Origin: Malacoraja senta | Taxonomy: Eukaryota | NCBI GenBank assembly: GCA_038087875.1 | Contig: CM075995.1 | Location: 5,830,001 to 5,894,000, forward strand | Length of the DNA: 64,000 nucleotides | Direction: 5' to 3' | In this document: piece by piece, positions 10,950-46,253 of the stretch | How positions within the stretch are numbered: the first letter of the stretch is position 1 | Layout: every line of letters starts with the position of its first letter | Translations under genes and position numbers: made by a program | Notes under the pieces: model-generated | Seen by the model: the letters and a program-made list of their open reading frames with translations, nothing else | The model's database searches: none | Told to the model about the DNA's origin: nothing

Positions 10950-11149
10950 NNNNNNNNNNNNNNNNNNNNNNNNNNNNNNNNNNNNNNNNNNNNNNNNNNN
11001 NNNNNNNNNNNNNNNNNNNNNNNNNNNNNNNNNNNNNNNNNNNNNNNNNNNNNNNNNNNNNNNNNNNNNNNNNNNNNNNNNNNNNNNNNNNNNNNNNNNN
11101 NNNNNNNNNNNNNNNNNNNNNNNNNNNNNNNNNNNNNNNNNNNNNNNNN
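10950..11149. other. Assembly gap (200 N)
   Basis: Run of exactly 200 N; the sequences on either side belong to unrelated repeats. Confidence 1.
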
Positions 11150-22949: not shown

Positions 22950-23801
22950 GATAATGTATTTGAATTTGGTGGCCTTGCACTCTGCTTGAAATGGAATTTC
23001 AAGGAATAGCCGTGAGTCAACTGCCAGCCCACCAGCCGTGAGTGAGCTGACAGCACATCAGGCTTGAGGGACTGAGCTGCCACCCCAAGAATCCATTTGG
23101 CTCACAATGTCCATACTAGCCCTCTGGAGACGAGTAGTCCCTGCAGCCAACAACACCCATACCTGCGCTCCAGAAAGCCCCCCCCCCCCCCCCCCACTGG
23201 CCACCAATATTGGAATTGGTGGAAAGGTGGAATATTGCCCTCCCGTGTGAACATGGGACCCAACATGGGACCCAACGGGTCCCACTTAGTCTAATAGTTC
23301 TTGTTTACTCCCTAACACCAGTGATGCCCAGGAGAGAGGGGAAACCACCGGCAGGCCCATGGAAGGCAGTAGCAACCCACTGTGGCCGCCAGCCCTTCAA
23401 CGGGAATTCTTGGGAGCTGCAGGGGGAGGAGGACGGAGTTCTTGCACTTTGGGGATTGACCAGATCAGACAGCATCCCGCCGGGGAGTTCACCCCGGTCC
23501 AGGGCTGGGCTGCAGACATGAGGCGAGTGTACGAGAGAATGCAGCTACAGGAATCTGCAGCAATAATCAAAACAAAGCTGCTGCAGGAACCTGACGGGTA
23601 AATCTGCATCTCAGAAGGATGCTCAACGTCTCGTCCGTTTGTCTCCTCAGATGCTGATCGGCCCGGTTGGGCAGTTTCAGCTTGTGGGCGGCCGATTGAC
23701 AAACACCCCGAGGTGTGTGCACGGTCCCGTGTTCGCTGGACACCCTCTTAACCGCCCCCCCTCCCCCCCTCCCCCCCTCCTTTCTCCCCTTTCGTCCTTA
23801 C

Positions 23802-23935
23802 AAGGTCTCGACGTGTTTGATTTTCTTCACTTCTTGGTGCAGCCGCTTCTTCTTCTTCCTCTCCGGCTCCCTGTCTTCGGCCGAACGACGGCGGTGCCGG
23901 CGCTCTTTTCCACTCGCTCGGCTGCCCTCCGCCAT
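23802..23935 (-). CDS. RP9: RP9 (PAP-1, pre-mRNA splicing factor) coding exon 1
   Basis: GAGATGGCGG start context; MAEGSRASGKERRHRRRSAEDREPERKKKKRLHQEVKKIKHVET+TT|GTAAGG; resembles the RP9 N-terminal exon ending ...LKHLESF; downstream RP9 exons are on the same strand. Confidence 0.85.
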
Positions 23936-24113
23936 CTCGCCGCCGAGCGGGAAGCACGACCAGATTGCTGGAGGCGGAGGGGAGAGAGGGACAGCGGTTC
24001 TAGGATTCACCGCCGCCCGGCTCGGGCGACCCGAGGTAGAGCCGCAGGATTTGCTCCGTCCGCCATCGCGGCGCCGAAGAGCCGCCTATCTATTCCAGCA
24101 CCTTCCATGGGGG

Positions 24114-24125
24114 CGCGCATGCGCA
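24114..24125. promoter_or_regulatory. NRF1 binding motif
   Basis: CGCGCATGCGCA matches the consensus YGCGCAYGCGCR. Confidence 0.7.
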
Positions 24126-24164
24126 CTGGCTATCGACGCTCGGGAAGGAAGGAGGGAGAGAGAG

Positions 24165-24392
24165 ATGACAGGGCTGGCGTCGTACGTTGCCCCGCTAACT
24201 CTGGCCCTCGTCCCGCTACTCTGGCACTCGTCCCACTACCTTGCCATGACCGCGACCGGAGGCCCGGGCCACAGCCGTGGTCTCGTCAGCCGAGATGACT
24301 TCAACTACTTTGCCTACGGCAGCAACATGCTGCGGGGGCGGCTGCTGCTCAACAACCCGACGGCGGTGCAAGTGTCCGTGGGCTGCTTGAAG
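24165..24392 (+). CDS. GGCT: GGCT-like gamma-glutamylcyclotransferase, coding exon 1 (ATG 24165; second in-frame ATG 24246)
   Basis: Translates MTGLASYVAPLTLALVPLLW...DDFNYFAYGSNMLRGRLLLNNPTAVQVSVGCLK; YFAYGSN is the GGCT-family motif; ends at AAG|GTGAGA donor, phase 0; 228 nt. Choice of start codon is uncertain. Confidence 0.9.
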
Positions 24393-24689
24393 GTGAGAGA
24401 GCGCGGATGGTGGGAGTCCTCCGACTAGTTTCACTGTCCTTCTGATTAATCGTACTGATTGTATGCCTCCTTGTCACCTTCCGGCTAATAATTAACCACT
24501 CTAGATAGACACAAAAAAGTGGAGTAACTCAGCGGGACAGGCAGCATCTCTGGTTTCTGCTACTGCTTGCTACTGCACAACCGAACGTAAAAACAACAGA
24601 ACGCAGGACACGACTGCACAACAGCCAACAGCTGGGCTATCTCGTGCAGGTTACGCTCGCATGGGCACTGGTTGCAAAAGGGTTATTTA

Positions 24690-25150
24690 GATTTTTATAT
24701 GGGCAAGTTTGGTGAGATGATCCATGTCCAAGTTGTCGAACTGTGACTTGAAGAGTGACAAGGTTGGTGCACGTCTGGTGGTGTCGGGAAGGATGTTCCA
24801 CTCTGGGATAGTCCATGGATATAGTGATTGTATTTAGCTATATTTGCTCTAATTCTAGTGTAAATAAAGTGACCTGAGGACTGTCTTGTAGATTTCTGGG
24901 TATTGGATTGAATGAGGTGAGATATGTTACTGGGGATGATGCCAGTCCTTGTAGACAGTACATAAGCAGGCTTTGTTGCGTCTTGACTCCAGGCACTGTG
25001 ATTTAACATTTGACTGTCTTGAATAGTCGTTATAGACAAACCGGCTGCACGCCTCTGAACCTTGTCAAGGGTGTCAATGTTATTTTTCTGGTGAGGGTCC
25101 CATATTGTTTGGCAATATTCCAACAGTGGGCGGACAAGTGCTTTGTAATA
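24690..25150 (-). mobile_element. Non-LTR retrotransposon 3' fragment (not the dominant CR1 family)
   Basis: YKALVRPLLEYCQTIWDPHQKNNIDTLDKVQRRAA. Confidence 0.7.
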
Positions 25151-25191
25151 TAATATATACACAAAACAAAACAGTGCAAAATTGTTAATAC

Positions 25192-25413
25192 TGTGGCGGC
25201 ACCTGGTGGCAACCCAAGGGCACAACGAGAGGACGGTGTCTTGGTGTGGGAGGCGCTAGTCACGGGGTCGGTACCTGATTTGGTATTTAATGCCGGGCAA
25301 CACCCGTGTCCGGGGAGGAGTAGGGAGCTGCATTGGAGAGAATAAACACGTCTAGTGCACACAACTCATGTCCAACTCGTTTTTTAGCTGGGCTCCTGCG
25401 AGTCCCTGCCACA
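25192..25413 (+). mobile_element. Solo LTR
   Basis: TGTGGC...GCCACA termini, ATAC 4-bp TSD, internal AATAAA. Confidence 0.75.
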
Positions 25414-25509
25414 ATACATTCTTAATGTATTCATCCATGCATTACCGCTAGTGTTGCACCTCTCTTTTTCCCTTAAACATAGGACCATTGCCATGTTGTC
25501 CTGAACTAT

Positions 25510-25990
25510 TAAATCTGAAGAAGGGTCTCGACCTGAAACATCTCCTATTCTTTTTCTCCAGAGATATTTTCTGACCCGCTGAGTTACTCCAGCTTTTTGT
25601 TTCAGAAGGAACTGCAGATGCTGGAAAATTGAAGGTAGACAAAAATTCTGGAGAAACTCAGCAGGTGAGGCAGCATCTATGGAGCAAAGGAAATAGGCGA
25701 CATTTCGGGTCGAGACCCTTCTTCAGACTGATGGGGGGGGGGGGGGGGGCGGGAAGAAGAAAGGAAGAGGCGGAGACAGTGGACTGTGGGAGAGCTGGGA
25801 AGAGGTTAAGATGTGGTCATAGAGTTGGAGGGAAGGGGGAATCACAGAGGGGGGGGCAGTGAGAGAGGATGTTGTTAAACTCTTTGGAGAGAGGAGGAGA
25901 ACTTCAAAGTAGGCATGCCTTGAGGATGTCAGTTGATAGTCTATCTCCTGTGATGGAGACGGTGAGATCAAGAAACCGTTGGGAGATGTT
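25510..25990. repeat. Penelope-derived fragments with hammerhead-like cores
   Basis: CTGAAGAAGGGTCTCGACC(C/T)GAAA on both strands. Confidence 0.65.
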
Positions 25991-27519
25991 GGCATTCAGC
26001 TACATCTGTGCAGAATTCCGTAAGAGGTTGTTAGTTTCATTGAGTAATTATAGTTAATGCTGATGGTTTTTGCTATAAATATATTTGTAAAATCCAGATG
26101 GATGCATTTGTCCTTGTTCCATTCGAATGCTAACATGACAATTTGTTTGAATTGTTCCAAGATACAGTAATTATTGAGAAATTCAGCTAGCATTAATGTG
26201 ATAATATTTTGGAACTGAAGACAAATGTTCAATCAGGGTCGGCAATCAAACCTACTTCTGACTCCAAAATTGCACATCAGGCTGGTAAAAGCCGACAGAA
26301 ATAAGCAAAACTTTTGTGAAATCTAGTTGGTCTTCTGTTCAGAAACATAATTATACATTTGAATCAATAAACAAGATGTTTAAAGTGAGTAAAAGTATCT
26401 TAGTTTAATTATATAGTCACGAGCATCGAGGTACCGTGAAAAGCTTTCGTTTGTGTGCGATCCAGTCAAAGAAAAGACTACACATAATTTCAATGTGTGT
26501 AAGAAGAATTCAATTTTTTCTAAGCTAGGCACCGAAGCAGCAGCCAACTTAGCACTGTATGACATATTATGACATATAGTCCTGAAAAGCGCTATATAAA
26601 TAAAATCTATTATTATTATTATTATATTATTTACTTTAATAAGTTTTAGAGGAAATTTATGATGGATAGAAAAATGCATTCAGCTCTCATATGCTGTGGA
26701 TATTGGTGGAATGTAACCAGTGCCTACTAGTTTTCTGACCAGGATCAGCCAATTGTGATACTTGACATGAAAGAATCTCATGGATAAGTGTCCACTTTTT
26801 ATTGGTAAGCATAAATGTGCTGGAGTACTTTTGGGTATAGGAATTGTTTCTGAGGGTTGCCATTGTTCCTACTTCAAATTTTAGTTTGCCTTCACTGAGC
26901 TACCTCACTTGAATAGATGGCGTTTACATCTGTTGCCCGTTATTTACCTAGCAGGTGCAGTGACGTGCCCTTCTGATGCTGATCAATATTTCAAATCATG
27001 TTGTGTTCATTGTCATACGGACAAGTATGGTGGGGTCCACGTACAATGAAAATCTTGCTCGTATCAACATCACAGGAACATAGACTCAGACAGCACGTTA
27101 AATATATGAATATAAATAAGACCATGCTAAACATAATTAGAAAAAAAGTTTGTAGTGTTTTGTTGCTGAGGTAGGATTTGAATTGTGCAGGTGTATTCTT
27201 TTATCAAGAATATTTAAAGAAAGCATTGGTTAACATTGACTAGTTGTTAGTGTTTTTGTGGAGTGAGCAATTTCTTGATTTCCAGGTTCTGAGGAAGGAA
27301 TCCTGCCTTGAACTTGAATGTGGAAAGATTTCCATCCTGTCATGTAATGGGCTTCTACATCTTTTCCATGTAAACAGTCTAGATCTTGAATAGATTAGTT
27401 CAAATTTACAGTAGACCCTCGCTTTAATGGACCGCTTTGTAATGGATTTTGGTTGTAGCAGATGGACCTGCCGACACTACCCCCTGCTCACAAGGTGCAT
27501 CAGCGAGCCCTTCTTCACC

Positions 27520-28285
27520 CACTTTATATACTTTCAGGTCTCCCCTCAACCACTGGCATTCCAGAGAAAGCATCTCTTGCACCCTCTCGAAAGCATCCAC
27601 ATCCTTCTTGTAGTGGGGCGACCAGAACTACACACAACATTCCAAATCCCCGACCTATGTAAGCAAGCATACCACATACCCTCTTTACCACTATCTAATT
27701 GATTTAGATTTTCAAAGAATTATGGGAGTTATGGACTTTCAGGGAGTTATGGACTTCAACCCCATGATATCTCTGTACATCAATGCAGTTAAGGTTCATG
27801 CCATTAAATGTATATTTACCCTTTACATTTGACCTCCCCAAAACAGTAGATGTCACAGAACAAATCCCTGCAGAACTACACTGGTCACAGATTTCCAGCC
27901 TGAATATTGCCATAACCCACAGTCTTCTATCAATAAACCAGTTCAGAATCCATTTCGACCAAGTCACTGTTAATCCCACGCATCTTAATCCTCTGGATCA
28001 GCCTACCATGGGGGACTTTATCAAATTCCTTACTAAAATCCATGTAGACAACATACACAACCCTATCTTTTTGGTCACCTTAAAAAAACTAACATTAATA
28101 AGTCTACACCTGCCATGCTGATGGTCCATAATTAACCCATTTTCTTCCAAATGAAAATCGATGAATCCTTTCCAATAGTTTCGCTGCCACTGATGTGAAG
28201 CTCACCGGCCTATAATTCTATGGAATTCATTCCACTTCCCTTCTTAAATAAAGAAACAATGTCAGCTACTCTAGTCATCCAGGAT
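27520..28285 (-). mobile_element. Old, degraded CR1 LINE fragments
   Basis: Residual similarity to CR1 RT (ggggactttatcaaa..tactaaaatccatgtagacaac; ccactgatgtgaagctcaccggcctataatt). Confidence 0.6.
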
Positions 28286-28296
28286 GTAACTTGTGA

Positions 28297-28598
28297 GGGT
28301 AGCACAGAGCTGCAGCGGAAGAGTTGTTGCCTTACAATGCCAGAGACCCCGGGTTCAATCCTAACTATGGATTCTGTCTGTACGGGGTTTACACGTTTTC
28401 CCTGTGACCATGTTGTTTTTTTACTAATGCTCCGGTTTCCTCCCACATTCCAAAAACGTGCAGGATTGTAAGTTAATTGGCTCTGCAAATTGTCCCTAGT
28501 GTGTGGGATTAGAAATAGTGTATGGGTGATCGTTGGTTGGTGCGCTCTCGGTGGGCTGAAGGGCCTGTTTCCACGCTGTATCTCTAAAACTAAAAACT
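28297..28598 (+). mobile_element. V-SINE (tRNA-derived)
   Basis: B-box-like GGTTCAATCC, V-domain ccggtttcctcccaca, CR1-like 3' end gggcctgtttccacgctgtatctctaaaactaaa. Confidence 0.75.
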
Positions 28599-29051
28599 GG
28601 CTAGAGAATTGTTGCATATTATGAACGCATATTATTTGCATATTATGCATGTTGCATTCTACTCACTGATCTCACTGTCCTCCACACATTCGTCCGACTT
28701 CTACTGGACCATCTAACATTGACACCAGCCATCAGGAGCCAGCCAGGTCCTGCGCCTTCACGATCCTCCTGTCCTAAATGGATTCTAAGTAGGCTACGTT
28801 GTTCATTTTAGGATTGTATTGGAAACAGATAGTCTTTGAGCCTCAGGGAACACCTATGTAAAAATTCACTCTTAGATTACCTTTTTATCTCTTTTATGTT
28901 TGCCTCCAAAGCTTTATAAAACCTATTTGATTTATAAACTTATATTTAGCTTGTTTAATGACTATATTTTACAATCTTGATAACTAGAAATAGATTTCAT
29001 AATTTTTAAGAGGGGTATTCTGTTTGTGAAACCAATACTTTTCTTCTTTAG

Positions 29052-29188
29052 GGCTATAGGCTTGCATTTGGCCAAGTAAATTCAAGCGGATGGGGAGGAG
29101 CTGTGGCCACTATTATACCAAGTCCTAATGAAGAAGTATGGGGAGTTATATGGTGCTTGAAAGCCGACAATCGACAGTCTTTGGATGA
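29052..29188 (+). CDS. GGCT: GGCT-like coding exon 2
   Basis: TTTAG| acceptor, GA|GTAAGT donor; GYRLAFGQVNSSGWGGAVATIIPSPNEEVWGVIWCLKADNRQSLD matches the GGCT W-x-GG-x-AT...EVWGV-x-W block; 137 nt, phase 0 to 2. Confidence 0.95.
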
Positions 29189-30113
29189 GTAAGTATTTTG
29201 TTTAATACTCTTTAATATTTTGTAGCAAAACTTCAATTTTAAACTGATGTGTTGCTCCAAAGGGATAGTAAAGATGATGGCAATCAGGTAGGATTTATTA
29301 TTTTTAAACGTGTGTTTCAGATATATTGAATGGTATACAGGTATGTGCATAAAATCATTTAAATCTTTATCTAGGATAACCTTAACGCATTTGTAATAAG
29401 AAAACAGCAACATTGATTATCAGTATACCAAACACGTTATTCTGGGTCACTTTTCACTTGCACAATAGTGGTTATATAGTCGGAGCTCCACAACTCTGCC
29501 ACCATCTATTGAAAAATCCAGACGGATAACTAGACAGCAAACTAGAGGAGGTGATTCCAAGAGCATCCCAATGCTTGGCGTTGTGGCCAAGCTCTTGAGT
29601 GCCAAAGACTGATGCATGTGTAATTGCATTCATAATGCAATGCAGAGTAGCTGTTCTATTTCAATATCTTCCCTCCTTGTCACTGTACAAAGGTGTGCGA
29701 ACGAACAGCACTTACCGATGCCCGACTTGGGTTTAGTCAGAGGCATAATAGGTGAGCAGAATCCAGGCAGCGGATCTAGTGATCCCATCCAAGAAATGCT
29801 TGGGACTATCAAAGGCTTGCAGGCTATCTTTTGATGGAAGCAATTACAAATGATGCAAATAATTAAAAAGATACACAAATGAAAATATAGTTTAAAAAAT
29901 ATGAATCGGATAAAATAAGGGAGATGCTATTCTTCAGGGTCAATAACCACAGGCACCAACTTCCTGTTCAAAATATTTATATCAATACATGTACAAATAT
30001 TTTCAATAAATGTACATAAAATCCAACAGGTATTTAACAAAATACTTGTCATTTGGTTCATATTGCAGCTCTTATTTGTTTCTGACCACAAGTGTATTTT
30101 CTCTCTGCAACAG

Positions 30114-30252
30114 TCAAGAAGGTGTTGAGAAAGGAATCTACAGTCCAATGGAAGTTCAAGTTGAGCAGAAAGATAGAGGAGGAGAAATTATTTGTCTGAC
30201 CTATCAGATGAATCATTTTAATGCCTCCCTCACATCACCACTTTACAAAGAG
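30114..30252 (+). CDS. GGCT: GGCT-like coding exon 3 (catalytic Glu in QEG)
   Basis: AACAG| acceptor, GAG|GTAGGT donor; (D)QEGVEKGIYSPMEVQVEQKDRGGEIICLTYQMNHFNASLTSPLYKE; 139 nt, phase compatible with exons 2 and 4. Confidence 0.95.
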
Positions 30253-30467
30253 GTAGGTAAATAAAAGTAAATTGATTTATTTGAAAATAAAATCAAAGTA
30301 AAAAGAGATTTGTTGATCCAGGATTAGACCACAAAGGCCTTAATTATCCTCCTTTAGGAATTCAATTTGTGCTGCACATCCATTAGCATTAAACTGTGTT
30401 CTATTTTGAAAGTCCGAACCTGCTTTGATTATTAATCAAAGGAGGAAATATTTCTATTTACTATCAC

Positions 30468-30912
30468 TTCTCCATCATGGTCTGGTTTGGCTCAGCCACC
30501 AAGCACGACATCCGGAGGCTGCAATGAATCGTCCGATCAGCTCAGAAGGTTATTGGCTGCAACCTTCCCTCCATTGACGAACTGTACACTGCAAGGGCCA
30601 GGAAGCGAACGGGTAAGATCATCTCTGACCCCTCTCACCCTGCCACAAACTCTTTGAATCACTTCCCTCTGGAAGACGAATAGTAGCACTACTCAATCAA
30701 TAACGAAAAATCTGTAGCCTCCTTTTGCTCTGATATTTTATTTAATTCACATGTTTAATCAATAATGTTTTATTATTGATGTTTAATGTTTTATGTGTCA
30801 TTCCTATGTGTCATTCCTAACTGTCACTGTATGTCATGTTGTCACTTGCGGGCGGAGCACCAAGGCAAATCCCTTGTATGTGAATACTTGGCCAAATAAA
30901 CTTATTCATTCA
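30468..30912 (+). mobile_element. Rex1/Babar LINE 3' fragment
   Basis: FSIMVWFGSATKHDIRRLQ; AATAAA and (ATTC)n tail. Confidence 0.8.
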
Positions 30913-31272
30913 TTCTCCATTCCATACAACAAAATTGTTTCCTTTTTTTTGGTGCTTTGGGATACTTGCAAGGAAAGAGAAACTTAAAAGAGGTTCATCT
31001 TTGGCTCTTCTAGGGGAAGAGTTAGAACAAAACTATTTTCCTGTAGATTTGCCTTTTTTTATAGGGCTAACATTTTGTTTTTTCTAATTATAAGTTTAAA
31101 CTTTCTATTAATATATAGAATCATAAAAGGGACTTTATTTCATACAACTTTGCTCACATGTTGAGACTGGACTAGGGAACTACTTTTGGAGCAGGGCCTC
31201 AACTTTGGTGATCTTTTAAAGTTATCAGGAGCACAATAACGAGGATTTGTTTCCTTGTGCATATAGTGAATA

Positions 31273-33530
31273 CACTTTATTAGCCAATTATGTATACATA
31301 CAAGGTATTTGCCTTGGTGTTTTGCTCGCAAGGATAATAACACGATATACAGTAGACAATTAAATATAAAACATTATAATTAAAAAATGTGAAGAATAAA
31401 TTACCAGTGCAAAAGGACGCTACAGACTTTTGGCTGTTGAGTAGAGCTACCGCTCGTGGAAAAAAGCTGTTTTTACATCTGGCTGTGGCAGCTTTCACAG
31501 TCTGGAGTCGCCTCCCAGAGGGAAGTACTTCAAAGAGTTTGTGGCCAAGGTGAGAGGGATCAGAGATGATCTTACCCGCTCGCTTCCTGGCCTTGCAGTA
31601 TACTGTTCGTCAATGGGGCGAAGGTTGCAGCCAACAACCTTCTCGGCGGATCGAACAATGCGCTGCAGCCTCCGGATGTCATGCTTAGTGGCTGAGCCAA
31701 ACCAGACCATGATGGAGAAGGTGAGGACTGACTCTATGATGGCAGTACAAAACTGGACCATCATTGCCTGTGGCAGATTGTGTTTTCTCAACTACCGCAG
31801 GAAGTACAACCTCTGTTGGATCTTTTTGACTGTGGAGTCGATGTGGCCTCCCATTTTAGGTTCTTGGAGATGATGGTTCCGAGAAACTTAAATGACTCCA
31901 CAGATGTGACTGTGGTGTTGTTGATAGTAAGTGGGGGGAGGGGGAGCTCTCCTAAAGTCTACAGTCAATTCCACTGTCTTAAGTGCAATTAGATCCAGGT
32001 TGTTGCGATGGCACCAGGACGCCAGCTGTGTCATTTCCTGTCTGTAGGCAGATTCCTCCCCATCCTGGATCAGTCCAATCAGGGTTGTGCCATCTTAAAA
32101 CTTGAGAAGCTTGACAGAGTAGTCTGTGGAGGTGCAGTCGTTGGTGTAGAAAGAGTAAAGGAGAGGGGAGAGTACGCAGCCTTTCGGTGCTCCTTTGCTG
32201 AGGGTCAGCGAATCTGAGATGTGCTTTCCCAGCCGAAAGTTGGTGATCCACTGACAGAGGGTTTTCAGGCACAGTCAACTAGAGGAGTTTTGAATATAGT
32301 AGGTCTGGCACAATGGTGTTGAAAGCAGAGCTAAAATCCACAAACAAAATCCTTGCATAGGTCTGGCAGCATAGGTGCTGGAGGATGAAGTGCAGGCCTA
32401 GGTTGACTGCATCATCCACTGATCTATTGGCATGGTATGCAAACTGCAAGGGGTCTAGCAGGGGGTTTGTGATATTTTCCAGGTGCGCCAGCACATTTTT
32501 AAAGGGTTTTCATTATTACAGAGGTCAGTGCAACAGGTCTGTAGTCATTAAAACCAGTAATCCTTGGCTTTTTGGGCACAGGAACAATAGTGGAAGTAGA
32601 CAAAAGTGCTGGAGAAACTCAGCGGGTGCAGCAGCATCTATGGAGCGAAGGAAATAGGCAACGTTTCGGGCCAAAACCCTTCTTCAGACTGATGTAGGGT
32701 GGAGAGAAGAAAGGATAAAGGAAGAGGAGGAGCCAGAGGGCTGAGGTAGAGCTGAGAAGGGGAGGAGACAGCAAGGGTTACCGGAAATTGGAGAAGTCAA
32801 TGTTTATGCTGCTAGGGTGCAAACTGCCCAAGCGGAATATGAGTTGCTGCTCCTCCAAGTTCTGGTGGTGCTCACTCTGGCCATGGAGGAGGCCCAGGAC
32901 AGAAAGGTCAGATTCGGAATGGGAGGGGAGTTGAAGTGCTGAGCCACAGGGAGATCAGGTTGGAGCGGAGGTGTTCGGCGAAACGATCGCTAAGCCTACG
33001 CTTGGTCTCACCGATGTAGATCAGCTGACATCTAGAGCTGCGGTGCTGAAGAAAGGTTTCGGCCCGAAACGTTGCCTATTTCCTTCGCTCCATAGATGCT
33101 GCTGCACCCGCTGAGTTTCTCCAGCACTGTTGTCACTCCCTGTGGCTCTCCCTCAGCCCTCTGGCTCCTCCTCTTCCTTTCTCCTTTCTTCTCCCCCCCC
33201 CCCCCCCCCCCCACCCTACATCAGTTTGAAGAAGGGTTTTGGCCCGAAACGTTCGCTCCATAGATGCTACTGCACCCGCTGAGTTTCTTCAGCACTTTTG
33301 TCTACCTTTGATTTTCCAGCATCTGCAGTTCCTTCTGGAACAATAGTGGAGTCTTTGAAGCATGCAGGGACAGTGCAGGTTTGCAGGAACTGATTGAAAT
33401 GTCTGTGTCGACTGGTGCCAGTTGTTCGGCACAGAGGTTGAGGGTAGAGGGGGAGACATTGTCCGGTCCTGGAGATTTCCGGCTTTTCTGTCTCCTCAAT
33501 AGCTTTTCCACCTCCTCAATTTCTATTGTA
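31273..33530 (-). mobile_element. Rex1/Babar LINE, 5'-truncated, interrupted by a Penelope element
   Basis: KSPGPDNVSP, LDPLQFAY..RSVDDAV, FVDFSSAFNTI, VWFGSATKHD. Confidence 0.85.
32595..33336 (-). mobile_element. Truncated Penelope-like element with GIY-YIG remnant and inverted pLTRs
   Basis: Minus strand ~32960-33035 encodes CQLIYIGETKRRLSDRFAEHLRS; 14-bp TSD GGAACAATAGTGGA (32581-32594, 33337-33350). Confidence 0.85.
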
Positions 33531-34759
33531 ATGGGCCTGTCCCACTTAGGCGATTTTTCAGGCGACTGCCGGCGACTGTCAAGTCGTAGCAGGTCGCTGA
33601 AAAAACGGCGACTGGAACGGCAACTGGCAGAGTGGAACACACACACACACATATACACATCGCTTCCTTCACCAGTTATGCAGGCGGGGGACAGGGCAAG
33701 CCAGGTGAGCGCTCTCTGAGTGAAATTCATGCGGTGCAAAGCCAATGCGATTGACATGTATCCCAAAACAATTTAAAATAATACACAGCCATCATTTTGT
33801 TAGACAGAGTCACAAGGCACAAAACAGGCCCTCACTCTGACTATGCAACAGCACCCATCTATCTTGTTTAGCATAAAAGCTAGAGAAAATAAGACACTTC
33901 ATACACTTGGTTTACTCCAAACCTCATTTATTTAATGTTTTTAAACAAATTATTCGTCTTTCACCAGTGTGTTAAGGGTTAGGCTGGCTGGGCTCTGTAC
34001 CACTGAGATTCCAACTGTTGCTCATGACCCAGATCAGAGATTCCTCTTCTTTATTGTTGACTGTTGGTCTGCTGGGTTGTTGCTGCCGAGATGCTCTATT
34101 TCTGATAAATGTATTTACACCAATTTTTTAGAATGTTGGGGCTCCTCGAACCCTAATTGAACCATTAAGGCACAGGGAAGCATGGAATTGATTGTTCCTC
34201 ACAGTTTTCCCCCTGTAGATATCATGGTCAATTTTTCCCACATAGCTATTTCATTGTCTTAATCTGGGCCTCTACTTATTTATTATCACCATAACAGGAG
34301 CTAGCTATTCTGTTTGCTGTTGCCACTCATATTTCCGTCCCCATCTTTGCCTTATTAATTTTTAATGTGCTTCATATATTCCAAGTAGGGCTTCCCCGAT
34401 TTCAGTTCTATATGCCTGCTAAATGCTTCATTTTTCTTATCCTATCCCTTGATTTATCCCTTGATATAACGTCCTTATCTTCCACCCTATGGGAACACTT
34501 CAGCTCTGAGATCTAACTATTTCAGCTAGGATTGGCTCGTCACATATCAGCTTGGCTGCAGGTGGTTGCTGCCAGTCTCCTTTTGCCAGGTCGTTTCTTG
34601 TGGAATTGAAATTGGCTTTCTCGCAACTCAGGACTTTAATATAAGTCCGTCCTGATCCTTTTAAATATTTTGAAATTATGAGGTGTCTCGCTGACACATA
34701 AGCAACTTGTCTGGCTACATTCCCTAGAAATACACCCAATATTGCTCCTCTCTGGTCAG

Positions 34760-36560
34760 ACTAACCACTCTAAGCCTTTCACAGTAATATGATCATAGTT
34801 AATACGGGCACATAATACATTGTTAATACCAAGCAGTCTTGAGCCACTACAGTTCGCCCACAGCCACAACAGGTCCATGGCTGATGCCATCTCTATGACT
34901 CTGTATGCATCCCTGGAACACTTGGATAAGTCATATTCATAGACTCCAACTATGCTTTTAATACCATTATCCCATCCAAGTTCATCGCCATACTCGTGGA
35001 ACTTGAAGTCAGCACTCATCTCTGCAACGGGATCCTCAACTTCCTGATCAATGGACCACAATCGGAGATAATAGAGGACAAATTATACTCTACGACAGGG
35101 GTCAGCAACCTACGTCTCCCGGGCCGAATGTGGCCCGTAATCCAAAATCATCCGGCCCGCAGGCTTATTTTTTTTCCCGTATTTATCCGGCCTGCAGACT
35201 TCCGTCATCTCCGTTACCTGCAGGCCCGAGGCCGCAGCGCCCAGGCGCGGTGACACATTGCGCGCTGGCAGCAGCAATGGCGGAGCTGCCGAGCAGCGCC
35301 AAGCGCCGAGCTCTGGCTGCACTGCATCCTGCGCAAAGCCGCCGACACCTTCTGTGTCTGGGCTTCACTGTCGGGATCGGGGTTGTCAATAGGCGGGGGA
35401 CGAGTGAGTGTGAGTATTTGAGCCACCACCTTCAGGACAGAGCCAAGGCAATGGGCCATGTTCGTTAGCGCCCGTAACTTGTAACTAGGGGCCAGTGCTC
35501 CGGGTGGCGTCCTCGAAGGGGCGGGATCTATGTGAACACGTGATTTGATTCCTGCCATCCGGGGCGGGATCAAGTGCACACGTGATAGATGTGGCCTGCC
35601 ATCCGCTCACAGACATGCATCCAGCCCCTAGGCAGAATAAGGTTGCCGATCCCTGCTCTATGTTAATCCTCAACACTGGTGCTCCATATGGATGTGTTCT
35701 CCGCTCCCTTCACTACTCCTTATGCACCCACGATTGTGCAGCCAAGTATAAATTTACAAATTTGTGGATGACATCGTAGCGGGCCGATATCAAATAATGA
35801 TGAGACGGAGTACAGGAAAGAGATTGGGAACCTAGTGACCTGGTGTCAAAACAACCTTTCTCTGAAGACAAAGTAGAAAGTGATCGACTTCAGGAAGCGA
35901 AGCGGTATACATTGACGTTGCTGAAATAGAGATGGTTGAAAATTCCTAGGAGTAAATATCAATGGCAACTTGTCCTGGACTAGCCATATCGAAGCAATGG
36001 CCAATGCCTCAACTTCCTTAGAAGGCTATAGGAAGTTTGGCATGTCCCCAACAACTCTTACCACCTTCTATGGATGCGCCGTAGAAAGTATTTTATCGGG
36101 ATGCATGGTTTGGGAACAGCTCCATCCAAGACCGCAAGAAATTGCAGAGAATTGTGGACACAGCCCAAACCATCACACAAACCAAACTCCCTTCCATTGA
36201 CTCAGTTTATACCTCATGCTGCCTTGGCAAGGTTACCAGCATAATCAAGGAAGAGTCACACCCTGGCCACTCCCTCTTCTCCCTCTCCCATCAGGCAAGA
36301 GGTGCAGAAGTGTGAAAATGCATATCTCTAGATTCAGGGACAGTTTCTTCCCAGCTGTTGTCATATAACTGAACCATCCTATCAACAACAAGAGAGCAGT
36401 CCTGAGCTACTATCTATCTCATTGGTGACCCTCTGGCTATCTTTAATCATACTTTACTGGACTTTATCTTGCACTAAACATTATTCCCTTTATCATGCAT
36501 CTGTACACTATGGATGACTCGATTGTAATCATGTATACTCTTTTCGCTAACTGGTTAGCA
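34760..36560 (+). mobile_element. Degenerate Rex1/Babar LINE
   Basis: EPLQFAH.HNRS, TGAPYGCVL..LHYSL, KFGMSPTTLTTFY pieces. Confidence 0.75.
35096..35655. mobile_element. hAT-type non-autonomous element
   Basis: TIRs CAGGGGTCAGCAACCT / AGGTTGCCGATCCCTG; 8-bp TSD CTCTACGA / CTCTATGT (6 of 8 match). Confidence 0.85.
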
Positions 36561-36574
36561 CTCAACATGTGTCT

Positions 36575-37500
36575 CGGACATGGTAGTGAGCAAAACAGGG
36601 GCCCCACAGTGGGCAGTCATCTCTCTCTTCCTGTTCACCATCTACACCTCGGACTTCAGATACAACTCAGACTCCTACCACCTGCAGAACATTTTGGATG
36701 ACTTTGCAATTGTGGGCTGCATCAGTGAGGGGAGGAAGCTGAATACAGAGGTGTAGTCGATTACTTTGTTGAGTGATGTGGGCTGAGTCACCTGCAACTC
36801 AACACCGACAAGACTGAGGAGTTAGTAGTGGAATTTAGGAGAAGAGGAACACCCCTGCCTCCATCAGGGGTGTGGATGTGCACTTTACCAAGGAGTACAA
36901 GTACCTTGGAGTTTACCTGGACAGTAAACTGGGCTGGTCCAGGAACGCTGAGGCACTGTATAAGAAGGGACAGAGCCATCTGTACTTTCTAAGAAAGCTC
37001 CGCTCTTTGAACGTCTGCAGTAAGATGCTGCAGATGTTCTACCAATCGGTGGTGGCCAGTGCCATCTTCTTCGCTGTCGTGTGCTTGGGAGCAGGGCGAG
37101 GGCCGCGGACGGCAGCAGAATTAACAAGCTCATCAGGAAGGCTGGCTCCGTCCTGGTGGTGAACTTGGATTCACTGGAGATGGTCTTGGAGGGGAGGATG
37201 CTCCTCAAACTGCAGAGCATCTTGGACAATACAGCTCACCCCCTCCATGACACACTGGTCAACCTGAGGAGCACCTTCAGCAACAGATTGGTTCCACCAA
37301 GCTGCAGCACAGAATGACACTGTGGCTATTAAACTGTACAACTCCTTCCCCTTCTGTCATGTGGTAGACTGACCCCCCCCCCCCCCCCCCATAATCTTTG
37401 CACATCTCTAATCCTGGACTTTCCACTCGTCACTTTAATGTATTTTGTTGTGTTTTTATGACTTGGCAGACCAATTTCCCTCCTGATCCCTTTATTCTTA
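36575..37500 (+). mobile_element. Rex1/Babar-type LINE 3' fragment (second subfamily)
   Basis: YKYLGVYLDSKLGWSRNAEALYKKGQSHLYFLRKLRS; HPLHDTL. Confidence 0.8.
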
Positions 37501-37622
37501 CACCTTTCTGAGGATTGTCTACATGTCTGCTCTCCAGCTCCCGCTTTTGCCAAGCCTGTACAACATCCACTGGAAAATTGTTGCTCCCTTTTTTTGTTTT
37601 ATGCTCTACCCATGAATGAATG

Positions 37623-40600
37623 TGTAAAGAAGTTAAGTCTGACTCGCTTGTAGCTTTACTTAACGTTTAATGATAACTCGGGTTAAACACGTTCCAGCAC
37701 TGACTGCACCCAGTCTGTCATCATGCTGGAACCAGGGAGGAGCAAGAGAGAGAGAGAGTTCTTATACTTGATAAGTAAAGCGTGGTTAGTAGTAGTGAGG
37801 TAGCTATATTATTGGTTGCATGCATAAACCATCTACATCCTTCCCCTAAGAAATCAAATAGAATTGGAGCCGAGGTGGTGTCATTACACACAGCATGCTA
37901 GTTTAAACAAAGTCGCCGTAGCGAACAGGCGGCTTAACAATGCGACCCGAACGCGTGCGTACACCGCCTCCCCCCCCACCCCATCGGAAAGAAAAGAAGG
38001 CGTAGCAGAAGCAGGCAAGAATGTTAAAGGAGGAGGAGACGCAGTCGGAGCTGGAGAAACGGGGAGGAGGCGAACGTGCAGGAGGTGAAGCAACCCGACC
38101 AAAACCTGGCGGCAACGGAGGAGGAGAACGCAACAAGCGAGGGGACTGGGGCATGCAGGGAGCAGCAGGGTGATTGGTAGCAGCAGGCGGGAACCGCAAC
38201 GGAGGAGCATAAGGAGCCGCAGGTGGAGGCTTCGGCTCGTTCACAGCCAATAGGTGTTGACGGCTCCGCCGATAGACAGTCCCATCGTAATCTACCAGGT
38301 AGGATCTTGGAGAGTCGTCCACATCAACCACGGTCGTGAGGCGGGAATAGCCGGTGGTGGTCCGCATCCAAACGACCTGGCCGGGTAGTGGAGGCAGCAG
38401 AGGTCGGCAGGACTTGTCGTGGGAACGTCGTTGAACCTCATGCTTCTGTTCGATCCGCTGTTGGACAGTGGCAGGATCGAGCACTTTGGGTAGCAGGGAC
38501 TGCTGGGCGATTGGCATAGGTGGTCTTGTCATCCTTGACATCAGATGCTGGGCAGGGGAACCCACGTAGGTTAAGTAAGCCCAGGTAGAAATCGCAGTTA
38601 GACAGGCGGGACTGCTCCAGCAGACCCTTAGCACTCCGCATGGCCCGTTCGGCCAGGCCGTTACTCTGAGGGTACTCAGGGCTGCTGGTGTAGTGATGGA
38701 AGTTCCACCTGGCAGCGAAAGCCTTGAACTCAGCACTTGTAAATTGCCGGCCATTGTCGGTCTGCAAGCGGACAGGGGCACCGAAGGTGGCGAAGTGCTT
38801 ACGCAGTTTGCTGATGACCATCTCGGAGGTGATGGAAGGAAGGAGGTCAACCTCGAACCAGTTGGAGTACGAGTCCACCAGGACGAGAAACTGCTTGCCC
38901 CGCCATTCGAATATGTCGGCAGCCAGCGATGTCCAGGGCATGGTAGGCGCCGGCTGCTGCAAAAGAGGCTGACGCTGCTGGTGTGGGGTAAGGTTGTTGC
39001 AGGAGGAACAAGAGGACACTCGGTCCCTGATGTATTTGGCCATACCAGGCCAGTAGAACTGTCCCTGAGCATGCGAAACAGTGGCCTCGACCCCAGGAGG
39101 GCTGCGTTGTAGTGTAGATCATACAGAGAGGCTGGGACCACGACCTTGTGGCCTTTGACGATAAACCCATCTTGGATCACTAGCTCATCGCGGACCAGGA
39201 AGAACGGTTGGGCACCCGATGGCAAAGTGGTGCGTCTGTCAGGCCACCCACGCCTGATGACGGCTGCAAGCTGCTGCAAAGCAGGGTCAGCAGCGGTGTG
39301 CTCGGTCAGGCACTGCACCTGCTTGGTTGGGACAAAGTTGACGTTCAGTACCACAAGGTCTTCCTGCTCGTAGGGGTGACGGTCACACGATTCTCGTGGG
39401 GCACGAGAAAGTGTATCAGCCACATGCATCTCCACGCCCTTCTTGTATATGATTTTGAAATCAAAACGCTGGAGCTGCAGCATCATGCGCTGGAGTCTGG
39501 CAGGGGCAACATGTATGGGCTTGTTAAGAATAGTCACCAGTGGCTGGTGGTCGGTTTCGACTGTGAATCGGCAGCCGAAGAGGAAGTCTTTGAATTTTGA
39601 ACAAGCAAACACCACCGCCAGGAGCTCCTCGATCTGAGCATACCGTTGCTCCATGGTCCGCGAGGCATACGAGACCTGTCGTTGTAGAGCTGCAGGCAAG
39701 CCGTCGTTGTAGAGCTGCAGGCAAGCAGCACCCAGTCCGAAAGCAGCATCACAGGTCACAACAATGGGATGGCGCAGGTCGAAGAATTTGAGTGTCGGGG
39801 TGCTGGTCAGCTTAGACTTCAGACATTCGAAAGCCTGCTGGTGTTGTGGAAACCAGGACCAGGCAGTGTCTTTTTTAGTTAGCTGCCTCGGGGATGAGCT
39901 CAGCTCGCTGAGATTCGGTATAAACTTCCCGAGGTAATTGACCATGCCCAGGAATCGTTGCAGACTGAGGACGTCGGTTGGGGCTGGCATCTCGGAGATT
40001 GCAATGGTCTTTTGCGGGTCGGGCTTCAGTCCATTAGAAGTGAAGATGTGCCCAACGTATGGCACTTCGGAGACGCGGAATCGGCATTTTTTTCCGTTCA
40101 GTTTTAAATTGATCTGCCATGCCCGGTCCAGGACTCGGCGGAGGTTCTGGTCATGTTCGGCGGCATTCTTCCTGTAGACTAGGATATCATCCACGATGAT
40201 GGCGCACGGCATGCCAGCGAACAGCTGTTCCATGGATCGCTGAAACACCTCGCTGGCAGAGTTAATTCTGAATGGCATCCGTAGGAACTTGAATCTTCCG
40301 TAAGGAGTGGCGAATGTTGTCAGGTCGGAGGAGCGTCTATCGGTCTATCGAGTGGTATTTGCCAGAAGGAACTTTTTGCATCCAGGACAGAGAATACCGT
40401 GGCCTGGCCGACTTGAGCTGCAACATCTTCCACGGTTCTCATGGGGTAGTGTGGTCGCCTGATCGCGAGGTTCAGGTCCTTGGGATTAATGCACACCCGT
40501 ATCTCGTTCTTGTCCTTTTTCAGGGTTGCAACCATGGTGGAGACCCACTCGGTGGGCTCGCTAACTGCTTCCAGCACCCCCATTGCGACCATGCTCTTCA

Positions 40601-42336
40601 GCATCGATTCCACTTTATCCTTTAAAGCGAGGGATACTCTGTGTGGTGCACGGACCACTGGCACCACCTTGGGGTCGGTGGCGATCTTGTAGACGAGAGG
40701 CAGTTTGCCCAGCTCATTATCGAACAGGTCCGGGTGCTCAGATATCGGATCCATCAGCACCTGTATTTCATGGACAGTACGGTCGAAGGACACTATTCCC
40801 AAGTCGTGGCATGCCTGGTTGCCCAACAGGGTCACACAATCAGAGTCGAGAACATAGAACATGAGAGGACGTGATGATTTCTTCAACACGCAATTAAAAG
40901 TGGCCTTTCCCACAGGTTTTAGCACCTCGCCCCCATAAGCACGTAAAGTCGAACGGTCTGCAGTCAGTAGCTCAATATGCCTAATCTTTCTGAACAGGCT
41001 TGTTGACATAACATTGACCTTTGCCCCCGTGTCGAGCTTAGCTGAGAAAGAACAGTTGTTGACAGTAACGAGGACCGATGGATCGGGGAGGCGAGCAGGT
41101 GCGTGTAGGAGTGTAAATACACTAGCATCTCCTTGAGGACTAATTGGCTCGGAGTCGTGGGCAGTGTCGAGAGAGGTCTGGGAACCAAAATCGCTATCAA
41201 CTTGTGCCAGGTTGTTTAATACTTGTCTTGAAGCTGGGGGTACGTTCCCAAGGGAGCGGCAAACCGCCGAGAAATTATTCAATTTCTTACAGACATTGCA
41301 GGATTTCCCGTAAGCAGGGCACTGTGACTGCATCGAATGTACATAATTGCAATTAGGGCACCTTTTAACGACATGTCGTCCGGGGACGTAGCCTGCCCGC
41401 AGCGCGGGTCTAGAGTTGTCAATTTTAGGACGCGGTCTGTTGAGACCAGTTAAATTGATCGAACGACCAACAGACTCCCGCTGTCCAAACAGCGGGTGAA
41501 CGACTTCAGCCAACCTGCACGCGTGCATTGCGTCAGTCAGAGTAAGATCTGGCCTTCTCAATAGCTCCGATCGCAGTTTCTGATCCAGCATACCTGTCAC
41601 TAGAATGTCCCTGGTAAGCTGGTCAGTCATGTTTTCAAATCGGCACCTCTGGGCGAGATATCGCAGGTCAGCAATAGAACATTCAACAGGTTCATCAGGC
41701 TGTTGTTTCCTCGTGAAAAACTTGGCTCGCTCTAAAATGCGGTTAGAGGGCAAGTCGCAAATCTCGGCAAACTTTCGCAGTAGACATACCGGATCGTTGG
41801 CAGACTCCTCGGGTAATTGAACCTGATCGTTTTCATCCCGGACCGCGGGATCATAGGCGAAGGTTCGTGCTCTCCTCGTAGCATCCGGACCAGCCAGGTT
41901 CAGTAGGAGAGAAGCTTTAACGATGTCGGGATCGTTGCGATGAACGATATTAATGTAATGTGTGAAGTCCATTTCAAAAGTCGCCCAGTCGGCATCAAAG
42001 ACTAGGGGCGAGGGTTTACGGCACGAGGATGCCATAGTGAAAAAGGTACAAAACTCCGATAAAGCAACACTTTCAAAGAAATAAAACCCGATAAACAGGA
42101 GGCGCGCGTTTTAACTTGCTGACACCATGTAAAGAAGTTCAGTCTGACTCACTTGTAGCTTTACTTAACGTTTAATGATAACTCAGGTTAAACACGTTCC
42201 AGCACTGACTGCACCCAGTCTGTTATCATGCTGGAACCAGGGAGGAGAGAGAGAGAGTTCTTATACTTGATAAGTAAGGCGTGGTTAGTAGTAGTGAGGT
42301 AGCTATATTATTGGTTGCATGCAGAAACCATCTACA
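37623..42336 (-). mobile_element. Full-length Gypsy/Ty3 LTR retrotransposon with frameshifted gag-pol, antisense in GGCT intron 3
   Basis: LTRs 42128-42336 and 37623-37837 (TG...CA), GAATG 5-bp TSD, PBS TGGTGTCAG, PPT AGGGGAAGGA; gag Cys motifs, protease LDTGA, RT IVDDIL, RNase H, integrase TDNG/ERA in Gypsy order. Confidence 0.97.
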
Positions 42337-43405
42337 GAATGATTCAATGATACTTTATTGTCACATTCTTTGTTTTGGATACTTAAGGTATGCAAAGAGT
42401 CACCACATAAAGTGCACCGATAAAGTTACTAAGTATCCTGCGGCAGGTCCTCCCTCCCAGCGGTTCCCCCATGTCGGGTCCTCCTTTGCTCTGCCGGGTC
42501 CTCCCTTGTTCTTCTCCCCACCCCCCATGGCAGTCCCCTATCCCGGGTCCTTTGTTCCCGGCGCTCCGACCACCAGCTCTCACGTGGCCTGTCCTCGACC
42601 GCCGGTGCCCTCAACAACGACCACCAACCTCGACAAACGCCGCACCGTCCTCCTTGTCGATCACCGACCCAACCTCCTCGACGACCCTCCACTCCTTACA
42701 CCTCCGTGGCACCATCCCAAGCTCCAGCCACGGGGGCACCGCCGACCCAGATTCTGGCCAAGGGCTCGGTCGCCGCAGGCTCCATCAACGCAATATCCGT
42801 GCGCGGGGTCCGTCGTCCCAGGCCCCGTCATCCCTGGTCACGGGCTCCATCACCCCCGGCACCGGCCATGGGCTCCATTGCCCAGGTGGCTTCATGTGAA
42901 GAGGCTTATAGAATATGGTCCTTCATCACCGCAATGATAGATTCCTTAATTAATATTGCATTGCCACCTGTTTTTTAACATCCACCCATCACATCTGTAG
43001 ATTCTATACCCTGGAAGATTGTTACCAATCCTGCCCTTTTTACCACATCTCCATGTTAACAACAATATTTTTCCATACGCTAATCAACACTCTCAGTTCA
43101 TTTGCCTTCTCGTCAGATCCCTTGCATTGAAACAAATGGAATTTAGCCATACATTTCTCTATATTGCCTTTTCCCACCCATGTCTAGTCTGCCGACTGGA
43201 CTGATTCAGTTTTCTTCTATATTTGACTATACCTCTCCTCCAAATAGTACTTATACTCTGTGCCTCATTCCCTATATACATGAGGAGCAAGTGTCCTGCC
43301 ATCTGCAAACTTAACCCATTCAAATGTATTGTATTTTGCAATTGCTATCTTTCATTTTTATTAATTCCATAATATGTAATTAATTTATGTGAATTATGTT
43401 TACAG

Positions 43406-43558
43406 GTGATCATCAGAGGGGCAAGAGAAAGTGGGTTGTCTTCTGAATATATAAAGAAGTTGGATACCATATTGACCAATAATTTCAATGAAACCACGCC
43501 ATTTATGATGCAAATTAGTGAGCTTTTGCTTCAACAACAAAACAGTACAGCCACATAA
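43406..43558 (+). CDS. GGCT: GGCT-like coding exon 4 (terminal, TAA)
   Basis: TTACAG| acceptor; VIIRGARESGLSSEYIKKLDTILTNNFNETTPFMMQISELLLQQQNSTAT* matches the GGCT C-terminal GA-x-E-x-GL-xx-EY motif; joined CDS 657 nt = 218 aa + stop. Confidence 0.93.
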   Translation: MIIRGARESGLSSEYIKKLDTILTNNFNETTPFMMQISELLLQQQNSTAT

Positions 43559-44072
43559 AACGTTTTTTTTCCTTTTCTGAAAGGATACATGTGTGTCTTA
43601 AATTTGGTCATCAGAGGATTATGTTGAAGTGAATTTGGAGACCAACATTTTAGAAATTTAAAAACTGGACTGATATTTGAGATTTACCTCAATAATTTTC
43701 CACGTTTTTGCACATTTTAATTTTCATTGAGGTAGGGGAGGCTTCGAAATCACCTTTTCTCTGACTAATATTTTAAATTAGTATCTAATGATTTTGTGCT
43801 TCATATATATTTTAACATGTTGTTCTTAGAAAATTGCTTGGAAACTGTGATTCCTTAGCCTTTAATTGTAAAACACTTTTTGCCATTGTCCAATCATCTT
43901 CTAATAACATAACCACAGAGGGATCAAAAGACTATTCAATGAACTGGGCTGAGGAAGTGACAGAGAGCCAGTCTTCCCTATAATTGCACAGGCACATTTC
44001 AAGATGGACTTGGATCACACACTGCCCAAAGAGACTTCTGGGTATATTACTTTTACTACCATTGTGCCATAT

Positions 44073-46253
44073 CAGGGCTCGAAATTAGAGGTTGCCCGGG
44101 TGCCACTGACCACTCAAAGCGCCGCCGGACAACCTAAACACCGAGTCATTTTGCCCGGCTTGGCAACCAGATACTGGTTTGTACCGAAGATAGACACAAA
44201 AAATTGGAGTAACTCCGCGGGCCAGGCAGCATCTCTGGAGAAGAGGAACGTGACATCTTGTGTTGGCGGCGGCTGTCGTGCGGGGCAAAATTACTAGGTG
44301 CGGGGTGAGGAAGGGTCGGAGCGAATGACGGGCCCCGCACAGCGGCAGCCACCTCCTTCTCCTCCTCCCGGCCCCCACCCGCCCTGATAAGGGCCGCTGC
44401 TTGCAAATCCGCTAACTGCGCTTTCAAAACAAACCGGAGGGAGGGAGGGGGAGGCCTCGGAGTGCGGGAGGGTTTGTTTTGCGCCGTTACCGGATTTACA
44501 AGCAGAGGCCCTTATCAGGGCGGGAGGAGGAGGAGATGGAGCCGCTGTCGCAGCCGCTGCTGCAGCTGTGCGAAGCCTGTCATTCGCTCTGACTCGTGTG
44601 AAGTAACTGCACCAAAGATCTTATAGCTATAGGATCTCTGAGCTGCACTGCCCGGCCCCGCACCTTGCTGTTGGCTGGCGGAGGAGGGAGGCGGTGGCGA
44701 GGAGTTCCCAACGGCCAAGGAGCTCTGACCTTCCTTCCTCCCCACCTCGCCCCCCTCTCCCTCTTTCGCTCTCTTGTATGCCACCCCCTTATCCTGGGAC
44801 CCCTCCACTCCATCCCGCACTGTTCCCCATTCGCGCCCCTATTCAGTCCTCACTGACATCCCCTGTGCTCCCCTCCACATCTACCCCCCCATCTATTCAT
44901 CCTGCGCTGATCACCCTATCCACCTCGCATTGGTTCTCCTGACACCCACCCCCCCATCCATCCTACACTGGTTCTCCAATTCACCCTATACTTACCCCTT
45001 TCCCATCCATCCTGCACTTCTCCATCCATCCTGTACTGATCCCCCATCCATCCTGTACTAATCCACGCATTCATCCCATACTGGCCCACCCTCCATTTAC
45101 CCTGCACCTTCCCCCCTTCCCCTCATTCATCCTGAAGTGATCACCCATTCATCCTGCACAGACCCTCCGATCCACGCTGTACTGACCCCCCCCCATTCAT
45201 CCTGCGCTGATCTCCCCCCCCCCCATCCATCCTGTACTGATCCTCCCATTCAAGAAGAATGGGGGGAACAGTCTGAAGAAGTGTCTCGACCCGAAACGTT
45301 GCCTATTTCCTTCGCTCTATAGATGCTGCCTCACCCGCTGAGTTTCTCCAGCACTTTTGTCTACCCCCATCCATCCCGTACTGAACCCCCCCATTCAACA
45401 CCACTGACATCCCCGGTGCTCTCCCCTCACAATTTTACCTACTCCAACCAACACGTACTAATTCACCTGCCTCAATCCATCCTTTCTGCACCGACTACCT
45501 TCTAACCCCCACCCCCGCCATCTATCCACCCCGCACTGATTCACACACACCCCCCTCCCTGACCCTATTGTGCTGGAAATGTCTTCAGAGCGAACATTGA
45601 CTATGTTTGATAACGGAATGCATTCAAATGTGTTTTAATTCGCAATGTTATTATTTGTTTTAATCCATAAAGATGGATGAATTAAATTGTGAACACGTGA
45701 AACATTAAAACCACAGTGTTCGATTGTCACTGCTGCCGTTGACACGTTATTACAGAATTCATTTTTAACGGCAAATCAATGCTCTTCATATGGAGTATCA
45801 GTACTGTAGTTATTTAATGAGCAACATTCACAACCATACGTACGCATATATGTTACCATGGTCCAGGATTTATTGACACAGGTTGATCATACGCTGAATA
45901 ATCCAACCACATTTTTGTTTGGAAGTGGAAAGAACTAATAGAAATTGCATTAATTGCAATGTGTAAAAAGAGTTGAGATACTGTCTTATAATTTTGCTGC
46001 ATGTCATTGTGGGATATATCATGTCTTGATTGGTGAATATGTTTAGTTTGTGACTTTATTTGAAACAGAAATAATATGTGAATCCTTCATTGAGTATAAT
46101 TCCGACTGGTAACTATGCACTTCGTCCGAGCACATTATCGCACGCGTCATGCAAGCCATCTTAAGTGACCACCTAAACTGTCATTTGGCAACCTAAAAAG
46201 CTACCAAGGTTGCCGGGCTGGCAACAGGGAAAAAAAGTTAAGCGAGAGCCCTG
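44073..46253. mobile_element. Non-autonomous hAT5-like element (5-bp TSD)
   Basis: CAGGGCTC...GAGCCCTG termini, CATAT on both flanks; internal palindrome, C-rich low-complexity tract and Penelope-derived inserts. Confidence 0.75.

Follow-up and report, generated by a model that had tools for sequence, protein, structure and literature searches.

A skate gamma-glutamylcyclotransferase gene with a probable secretory leader and a second in-frame start codon

Textbook accounts of the gamma-glutamyl cycle rest on mammals and place GGT outside the cell and gamma-glutamylcyclotransferase (GGCT) inside it. A GGCT gene of the skate Malacoraja senta raises the question of whether this enzyme can also be exported. 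The gene lies in a stretch of 64,000 nt (contig CM075995.1, positions 5,830,001–5,894,000, forward strand, assembly GCA_038087875.1), here called the window. The initial annotation, made from the sequence alone, proposed a candidate extracellular or luminal GGCT, with a signal-peptide-like extension and four N-glycosylation sequons, which might add an extracellular arm to the gamma-glutamyl cycle. Sequence comparison suggests that the skate GGCT is probably secreted and N-glycosylated, and that it has a probable cytosolic twin that starts at a second methionine, Met28.

The window gene is a real and intact GGCT. It has four exons with GT-AG splice ends and phases 0/2/0 (Table 1) and spans ~19 kb; the joined coding sequence, including the stop codon, is 657 nt and encodes 218 aa. 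Rejoining the exons reproduces the product first described, with YFAYGSN, E124 in QEG, sequons at positions 86, 158, 196 and 214, and cysteines at 74, 111 and 149. The exon 1 product shares 80% identity with a transcript-type skate protein starting at the same Met1. The exon 1 sequence is borne out by two sequencing runs that retain introns and behave as DNA; they differ from the window by T24211C (Val16 to Ala as read) and by a 4-nt insertion 5' of Met1. The window sits on contig C19 of a 1.94 Gb genome. The 1.9 kb past the GGCT stop codon (43559–45500) contain neither AATAAA nor ATTAAA on the + strand.

The first ATG adds a leader of 27 residues that is likely a signal peptide. It was initially described as hydrophobic and uncharged, with two prolines and no basic n-region, and these properties were found again. 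Leaders were compared by the hydropathy of the best 9-residue stretch, with controls and a pass value of at least 2.0. The window leader has a value of 2.52, which 1.2% of 5,000 shuffles of its nucleotides, kept free of stops, also reach; of 2,450 segments of 27 aa taken from open frames of the window, 5.2% reach at least 2.5 and 13.8% at least 2.0. A mitochondrial presequence was set aside, as Arg and Lys are absent from the leader. An Atlas search with the leader alone gave no usable match, and with the whole protein it gave only GGCT clusters.

The relatives show that such an extension is conserved, which had been proposed as a check. The elasmobranch set consists of the window protein and 18 database proteins (n = 19, without five near-copies or fragments from skates and two alternative isoforms), the ray-finned set of 98 rows from 120 listed among 554 matches, and the amniote set of 17 rows, which include isoforms of one turtle gene. 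Among the sequences sampled, none was identified as amphibian, holocephalan or cyclostome. A hydrophobic leader is present in 16/19 elasmobranch rows, which are all 16 of those with an extension of at least 22 aa; the annotated models of Narcine, Heptranchias and Stegostoma lack an extension. It is present in 48 of the 98 ray-finned rows listed (48/59 with an extension; 26/43 b-type and 22/55 a-type) and in none of the 17 amniote rows, including 11 that do have an extension. The leaders vary in sequence and length, yet stay in frame and hydrophobic. What is conserved is a property of the leader, its hydrophobicity, and not its letters. Skate leaders contain between one and three copies of a 7-residue unit (24189–24209 in the window), without any shift of frame (P0001, P0004, P0007, P0009). 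The window leader has one copy fewer than the RefSeq elasmobranch models, and there is a 5-aa insert ahead of the YFAYGSN motif. Logan contigs of 1.35–1.44 kb from related skates hold a complete 223–230-aa protein, Met1 included. These contigs probably represent spliced transcripts, since the gene spans 19 kb here.

The positions of sequons and cysteines were compared in an alignment of 18 full-length elasmobranch and 16 bony-vertebrate rows. The sites at 155–160, 196 and 214/215 are kept in 14/18, 15/18 and 15/18 elasmobranchs, respectively, and each in 1/16 bony-vertebrate rows; the positions slide by a few residues between elasmobranch lineages. The mean number of sequons is 3.17 in the 18 elasmobranch cores vs 1.42 after shuffling, and 1.46 vs 1.13 in 13 amniote cores. 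Amniote cytosolic GGCTs have 0–3 sequons. At least four sequons arise by chance with P = 0.095 (20,000 shuffles of residues 29–218), and the count alone was dropped as evidence. Of the four sequons initially reported, all are present and three sites are conserved across sharks and rays; the fourth, N86, and the count of four do not carry the same weight. A C74-C111 disulfide, also proposed, is not borne out by joint conservation, with C74 in 14/18 and C111 in only 5/18 elasmobranchs. The electric ray model has neither a leader nor any sequon, a single case that is annotation-based. Conservation of the leader and of three sequon sites in sharks and rays makes a form that enters the secretory pathway likely.

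Met28 is the last residue of the extension as initially drawn and was passed over there. Its ATG is in frame, has a good context and lies 20 residues ahead of YFAYGSN; the human protein has 18 residues ahead of the same motif. A second Met lies 6–22 aa before the motif in 14/16 elasmobranch and 47/48 listed ray-finned leader-bearers (chance ~0.28). A Met is found 4–22 residues before the motif in 9/12 non-vertebrate leader-bearers, and the second Met is less regular in a wider representative set (9/21). RefSeq has isoforms with and without the leader in zebrafish (220, 202 and 191 aa) and in a stick insect (203, 189 and 180 aa), and the zebrafish 191-aa isoform starts at its second Met. Genome searches with four queries (P0010, PF13772, snake and coelacanth) gave no other GGCT locus, and no second GGCT was found in the flanks 200 kb downstream and 50 kb upstream. 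The genome search is loose, as a control family search for glycyl-tRNA synthetase was also empty, and it could have missed a second locus. One off-locus match (L013) was rejected, as it aligned only to a non-GGCT part of one query. With a single GGCT locus found, both compartments are likely supplied by one gene. The extracellular GGCT first proposed is thus upheld in that the conserved leader and sequons make a secretory form likely, and modified in that the conserved second Met indicates a dual gene, secreted and cytosolic.

In the proposed explanation, the long product would be targeted to the endoplasmic reticulum (ER), cleaved near Met28, N-glycosylated at N158, N196 and perhaps N214, and would leave the cell as an enzyme predicted to be active. 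The Met28 ATG of the same gene would likely yield the usual cytosolic enzyme of 191 aa. The choice of start may be made by leaky scanning past Met1 with a very short 5' untranslated region (UTR), or by dispersed starts in a CpG island. The island covers 23780–24400 (GC 64%, observed/expected CpG 1.0). Because Met1 lies in this island, 230 bp from the start codon of a head-to-head gene, a short 5' UTR and scattered starts are plausible ways to make both products. Outside the cell, surface GGT would supply gamma-glutamyl amino acids and gamma-Glu-Cys, which the enzyme would convert to 5-oxoproline and a free amino acid that could be taken up again.

Several observations weigh against this explanation. 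Hydrophobic leaders are lacking in 3/19 elasmobranch and 50/98 listed ray-finned rows, and the counts are not independent, as the rows compared come from species related to one another and most of them are predicted genes. The N86 site (85/86) is kept in just 7/18 elasmobranchs. Sequons near a C-terminus are often skipped, and N214 is four residues from the end. The ATG context of Met28 looks better than that of Met1. Two upstream out-of-frame ATGs, at 24107 and 24119, open a frame of 63 or 59 codons that runs across Met1 and Met28 to a stop at 24296; on long transcripts these ATGs would mask Met1. The Rhinoraja RefSeq model begins at the equivalent of 24119, and its extra N-terminus of 22 aa was set aside, as it reads from an ATG that is out of frame in the window. 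The window leader is weaker than those of its relatives: it has His21 and Tyr25 at positions that are Pro and Cys in other skates, and by eye the residues before the second Met are Tyr-Leu-Ala in place of Cys-Leu-Ala. An aromatic residue at -3 is disfavored for cleavage, here after Ala27. Finally, the expression known for zebrafish ggctb concerns a paralogue whose orthology to the skate gene is left undecided by the trees.

The changes to His21 and Tyr25 weaken the obvious cleavage site in the window species; alternative cleavage sites near residues 30–32 are possible. This bears on an alternative in which the protein is targeted to the ER and not freely secreted: like GGT, it might be an ectoenzyme that keeps its leader as a type II signal anchor, or it might act in the lumen or the lysosome. 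Such an outcome is improbable, although Tyr at -3 makes a poor site, the 7-aa repeat extends skate leaders to as many as 30–37 uncharged residues, and the sequons are compatible with any luminal location. The uncharged stretch of the window leader spans 20 residues, among them two prolines, and is not flanked by basic residues; ray leaders have just 9–15 uncharged residues. The exon 4 translation lacks a C-terminal KDEL-type signal. Wasp and moth homologues are listed among venom and accessory-gland secretions in passages of PMC4776022, PMC7930282 and PMC9960318.

An ordinary cytosolic GGCT, translated from Met28 with the leader untranslated or a decaying relic in the window species, is likewise improbable. 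Met28 lies at the mammalian start position in a good context, three elasmobranch models begin there, four sequons alone are within chance, and the Pro and Cys before the likely cleavage site are lost from the window leader. However, a relic does not easily account for the in-frame hydrophobic leaders in 16/16 extended elasmobranch vs 0/11 extended amniote rows, for sequon positions that are conserved while sliding locally, or for the inclusion of Met1 in the transcript-type contigs of skates. Secretion from Met1 together with a cytosolic form from Met28 is the reading we prefer.

The enzyme identity of the product is supported by its closest relatives, which are skate proteins. The window protein is 95% identical to the Amblyraja model (P0001) over 173 core columns. 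The Amblyraja orthologue matches PF13772 (AIG2_2) with 90.2 bits (cut-off 27) and PF06094 (GGACT) with 36 bits (cut-off 22.8), and human GGCT by sequence with an E of 3e-40; exon 3 of the window alone gives a Pfam domain match of 34.4 bits. The fold was compared by way of the AlphaFold model of this orthologue. The model has a predicted local distance difference test score (pLDDT) of 74, with residues 1–44 disordered. In Foldseek it is nearest to GGCT (E 8e-21 to human GGCT, 42% identity, root mean square deviation 1.8 A), followed by ChaC2 (1.5e-8) and GGACT (3.8e-5). A single-sequence fold of the skate protein P0007 was discarded (pLDDT 38). E124 aligns with human E98 and is invariant in 34/34 aligned rows; passages of PMC7022552 describe E98 of human GGCT as the acid/base residue and also describe the YGS motif. 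Human GGCT (C7orf24; PDB 2PN7, 2RBH and 3CRY) shares the fold, the YFAYGSN loop and the catalytic Glu. It differs in being 188 aa without a leader and in starting about where skate Met28 lies, and the three conserved elasmobranch sequon sites are missing in nearly all bony-vertebrate rows. The intact fold and catalytic residues predict that the window GGCT is active (EC 4.3.2.9). A secreted protein with a changed job, i.e., another substrate or the binding of gamma-glutamyl peptides or 5-oxoproline, could be imagined from the long elasmobranch branch (0.52–0.63 changes per column) and the high variability among relatives of the loop that bears N86 and precedes W90, but it is very improbable with YGSN, W90, W106, G107, W110, E124, C149 and Y152 kept in all 18 elasmobranch rows and with a fold, in the Amblyraja model, that matches human GGCT.

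A GGCT with a leader is not new to the databases. The accompanying caveat, that precursor-type GGCTs might already be annotated in fish, was justified: zebrafish Ggctb (NP_998170.1) is titled 'gamma-glutamylcyclotransferase precursor' in RefSeq, which also holds a venom GGCT precursor of the wasp Nasonia. Zebrafish Ggctb resembles the skate protein in its hydrophobic leader and in a second Met ahead of the catalytic domain, and differs in having sequons at other positions. The zebrafish 202-aa model exchanges the leader for another 5' end, whereas in the skate both ATGs share exon 1. The RefSeq elasmobranch models named gamma-glutamylcyclotransferase or gamma-glutamylcyclotransferase-like (XP_032869229.1, XP_055511092.1 and others) are direct orthologues that already include the leader, without 'precursor' in the name. 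Insect GGCTs have the same layout of leader, second Met and GGCT domain; they differ in a ~38% identity to the skate protein and in their gland context. Among 21 non-vertebrate rows, 12 have a hydrophobic leader, and 9 of these 12 also have a second Met. GGCT-like transcripts of wasp venom glands are listed in passages of PMC4776022 and PMC7930282, the latter calling their function unknown, and a table of PMC9960318 includes GGCT among the secreted proteins of moth accessory glands. Some echinoderm and other proteins have two tandem GGCT domains (P0207, P0208, P0049, P0057). The skate gene belongs to these already annotated precursor-type GGCTs and not to a new system, with amniotes as the apparent exception.

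Teleosts have two GGCT paralogues. The elasmobranch GGCTs form a clade (100/100) that is weakly placed next to teleost ggcta in two trees (93/76 and 75/87). Alternative placements are not rejected by the approximately unbiased test (p 0.36), and the trees are compatible with the skate gene being either the ggcta orthologue or a pro-orthologue of both paralogues. The a-like and b-type GGCTs of mormyrids have equal longest-contig values, and two teleost models fuse b-type and a-type domains (P0051, P0313, P0206, P0047); these models suggest that ggcta and ggctb can be tandem neighbors.

In zebrafish, ggctb, c4, cp and vtnb mark the ependymin-positive cells of the leptomeninges (bioRxiv 10.64898/2026.02.14.703877, 10.1101/2025.04.09.646894, PMC11220022), and the passages on these cells in the three sources do not discuss secretion of the ggctb product. 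Elsewhere, ggctb occurs only in a table (PMC5752677), passages of PMC13201756 describe GGCT as an intracellular source of cysteine from gamma-Glu-Cys, and the main text of a zebrafish cerebrospinal fluid proteome (PMC4644717) does not mention GGCT. A literature search that covered few subscription papers found no study of a secreted vertebrate GGCT. A wider proposal, offered tentatively and with more doubt than confidence, is that the dual start, secreted from Met1 and cytosolic from the second Met, is the ancestral state of animal GGCT; sharks, rays, bony fishes and insects would have retained it, amniotes would have come down to the cytosolic form alone, and the secreted form would serve extracellular clearance in fish plasma and cerebrospinal fluid.

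Table 1. Positions in the window of the GGCT gene, its parts and the adjoining gene
Feature	Position	Strand	Description
GGCT exon 1	24165..24392	+	Codons 1-76: Met1, leader, Met28, YFAYGSN loop; GT donor, phase 0
Leader	24165..24245	+	27 aa, uncharged, predicted signal peptide; h-region ~residues 5-20
Met28, second in-frame ATG	24246..24248	+	Context gccATGa; putative start of a 191-aa cytosolic form
YFAYGSN substrate-binding loop of GGCT fold	24306..24326	+	Residues 48-54
GGCT exon 2	29052..29188	+	Codons 77-122; sequon N86 at 29079-29087; C111; tblastn with nine vertebrate GGCTs
GGCT exon 3	30114..30252	+	Codons 122-168; E124 at 30118-30120; C149; sequon N158 at 30220-30228
GGCT exon 4	43406..43558	+	Codons 169-218 and TAA; sequons N196 at 43487-43495 and N214 at 43541-43549
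Gap between two head-to-head start codons	23936..24164	.	229 bp; putative bidirectional promoter
Head-to-head gene	23935-23801, 4407-4345, plus L040	-	Basic Lys/Arg-rich first exon, middle exon, Lys-rich last exon

The putative promoter region has a palindrome at 24115, ~50 bp upstream of Met1, which we take to be NRF1-like. The head-to-head gene resembles RP9 (PAP-1); the pieces of this gene that were tried have no Pfam or PDB matches. Intron 3 of the GGCT gene holds long open frames at 37906–42110 on the - strand, and others are found at 9601–10812 (+) and 46505–64000. By their motifs, these resemble remnants of long terminal repeat (LTR) retrotransposons and of the reverse transcriptase of long interspersed nuclear elements (LINE). 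A 200-base assembly gap (N) at 10950–11149 is outside the GGCT gene.

Since the gene and the precursor-type GGCTs are already in databases, the gain is one of interpretation. The layout of a leader followed by a second Met would be a clean case of dual targeting from one gene, with an apparent loss in amniotes. If fishes secrete GGCT, gamma-glutamyl amino acids would be broken down where they are made, and body fluids would yield their cysteine and other amino acids for recovery in a different way. For ggctb, so far just a leptomeningeal marker in zebrafish, a testable biochemical role would follow. If the dual-start ancestry is true, a soluble extracellular enzyme of fishes would close the gamma-glutamyl cycle outside the cell, unlike the mammalian textbook scheme.

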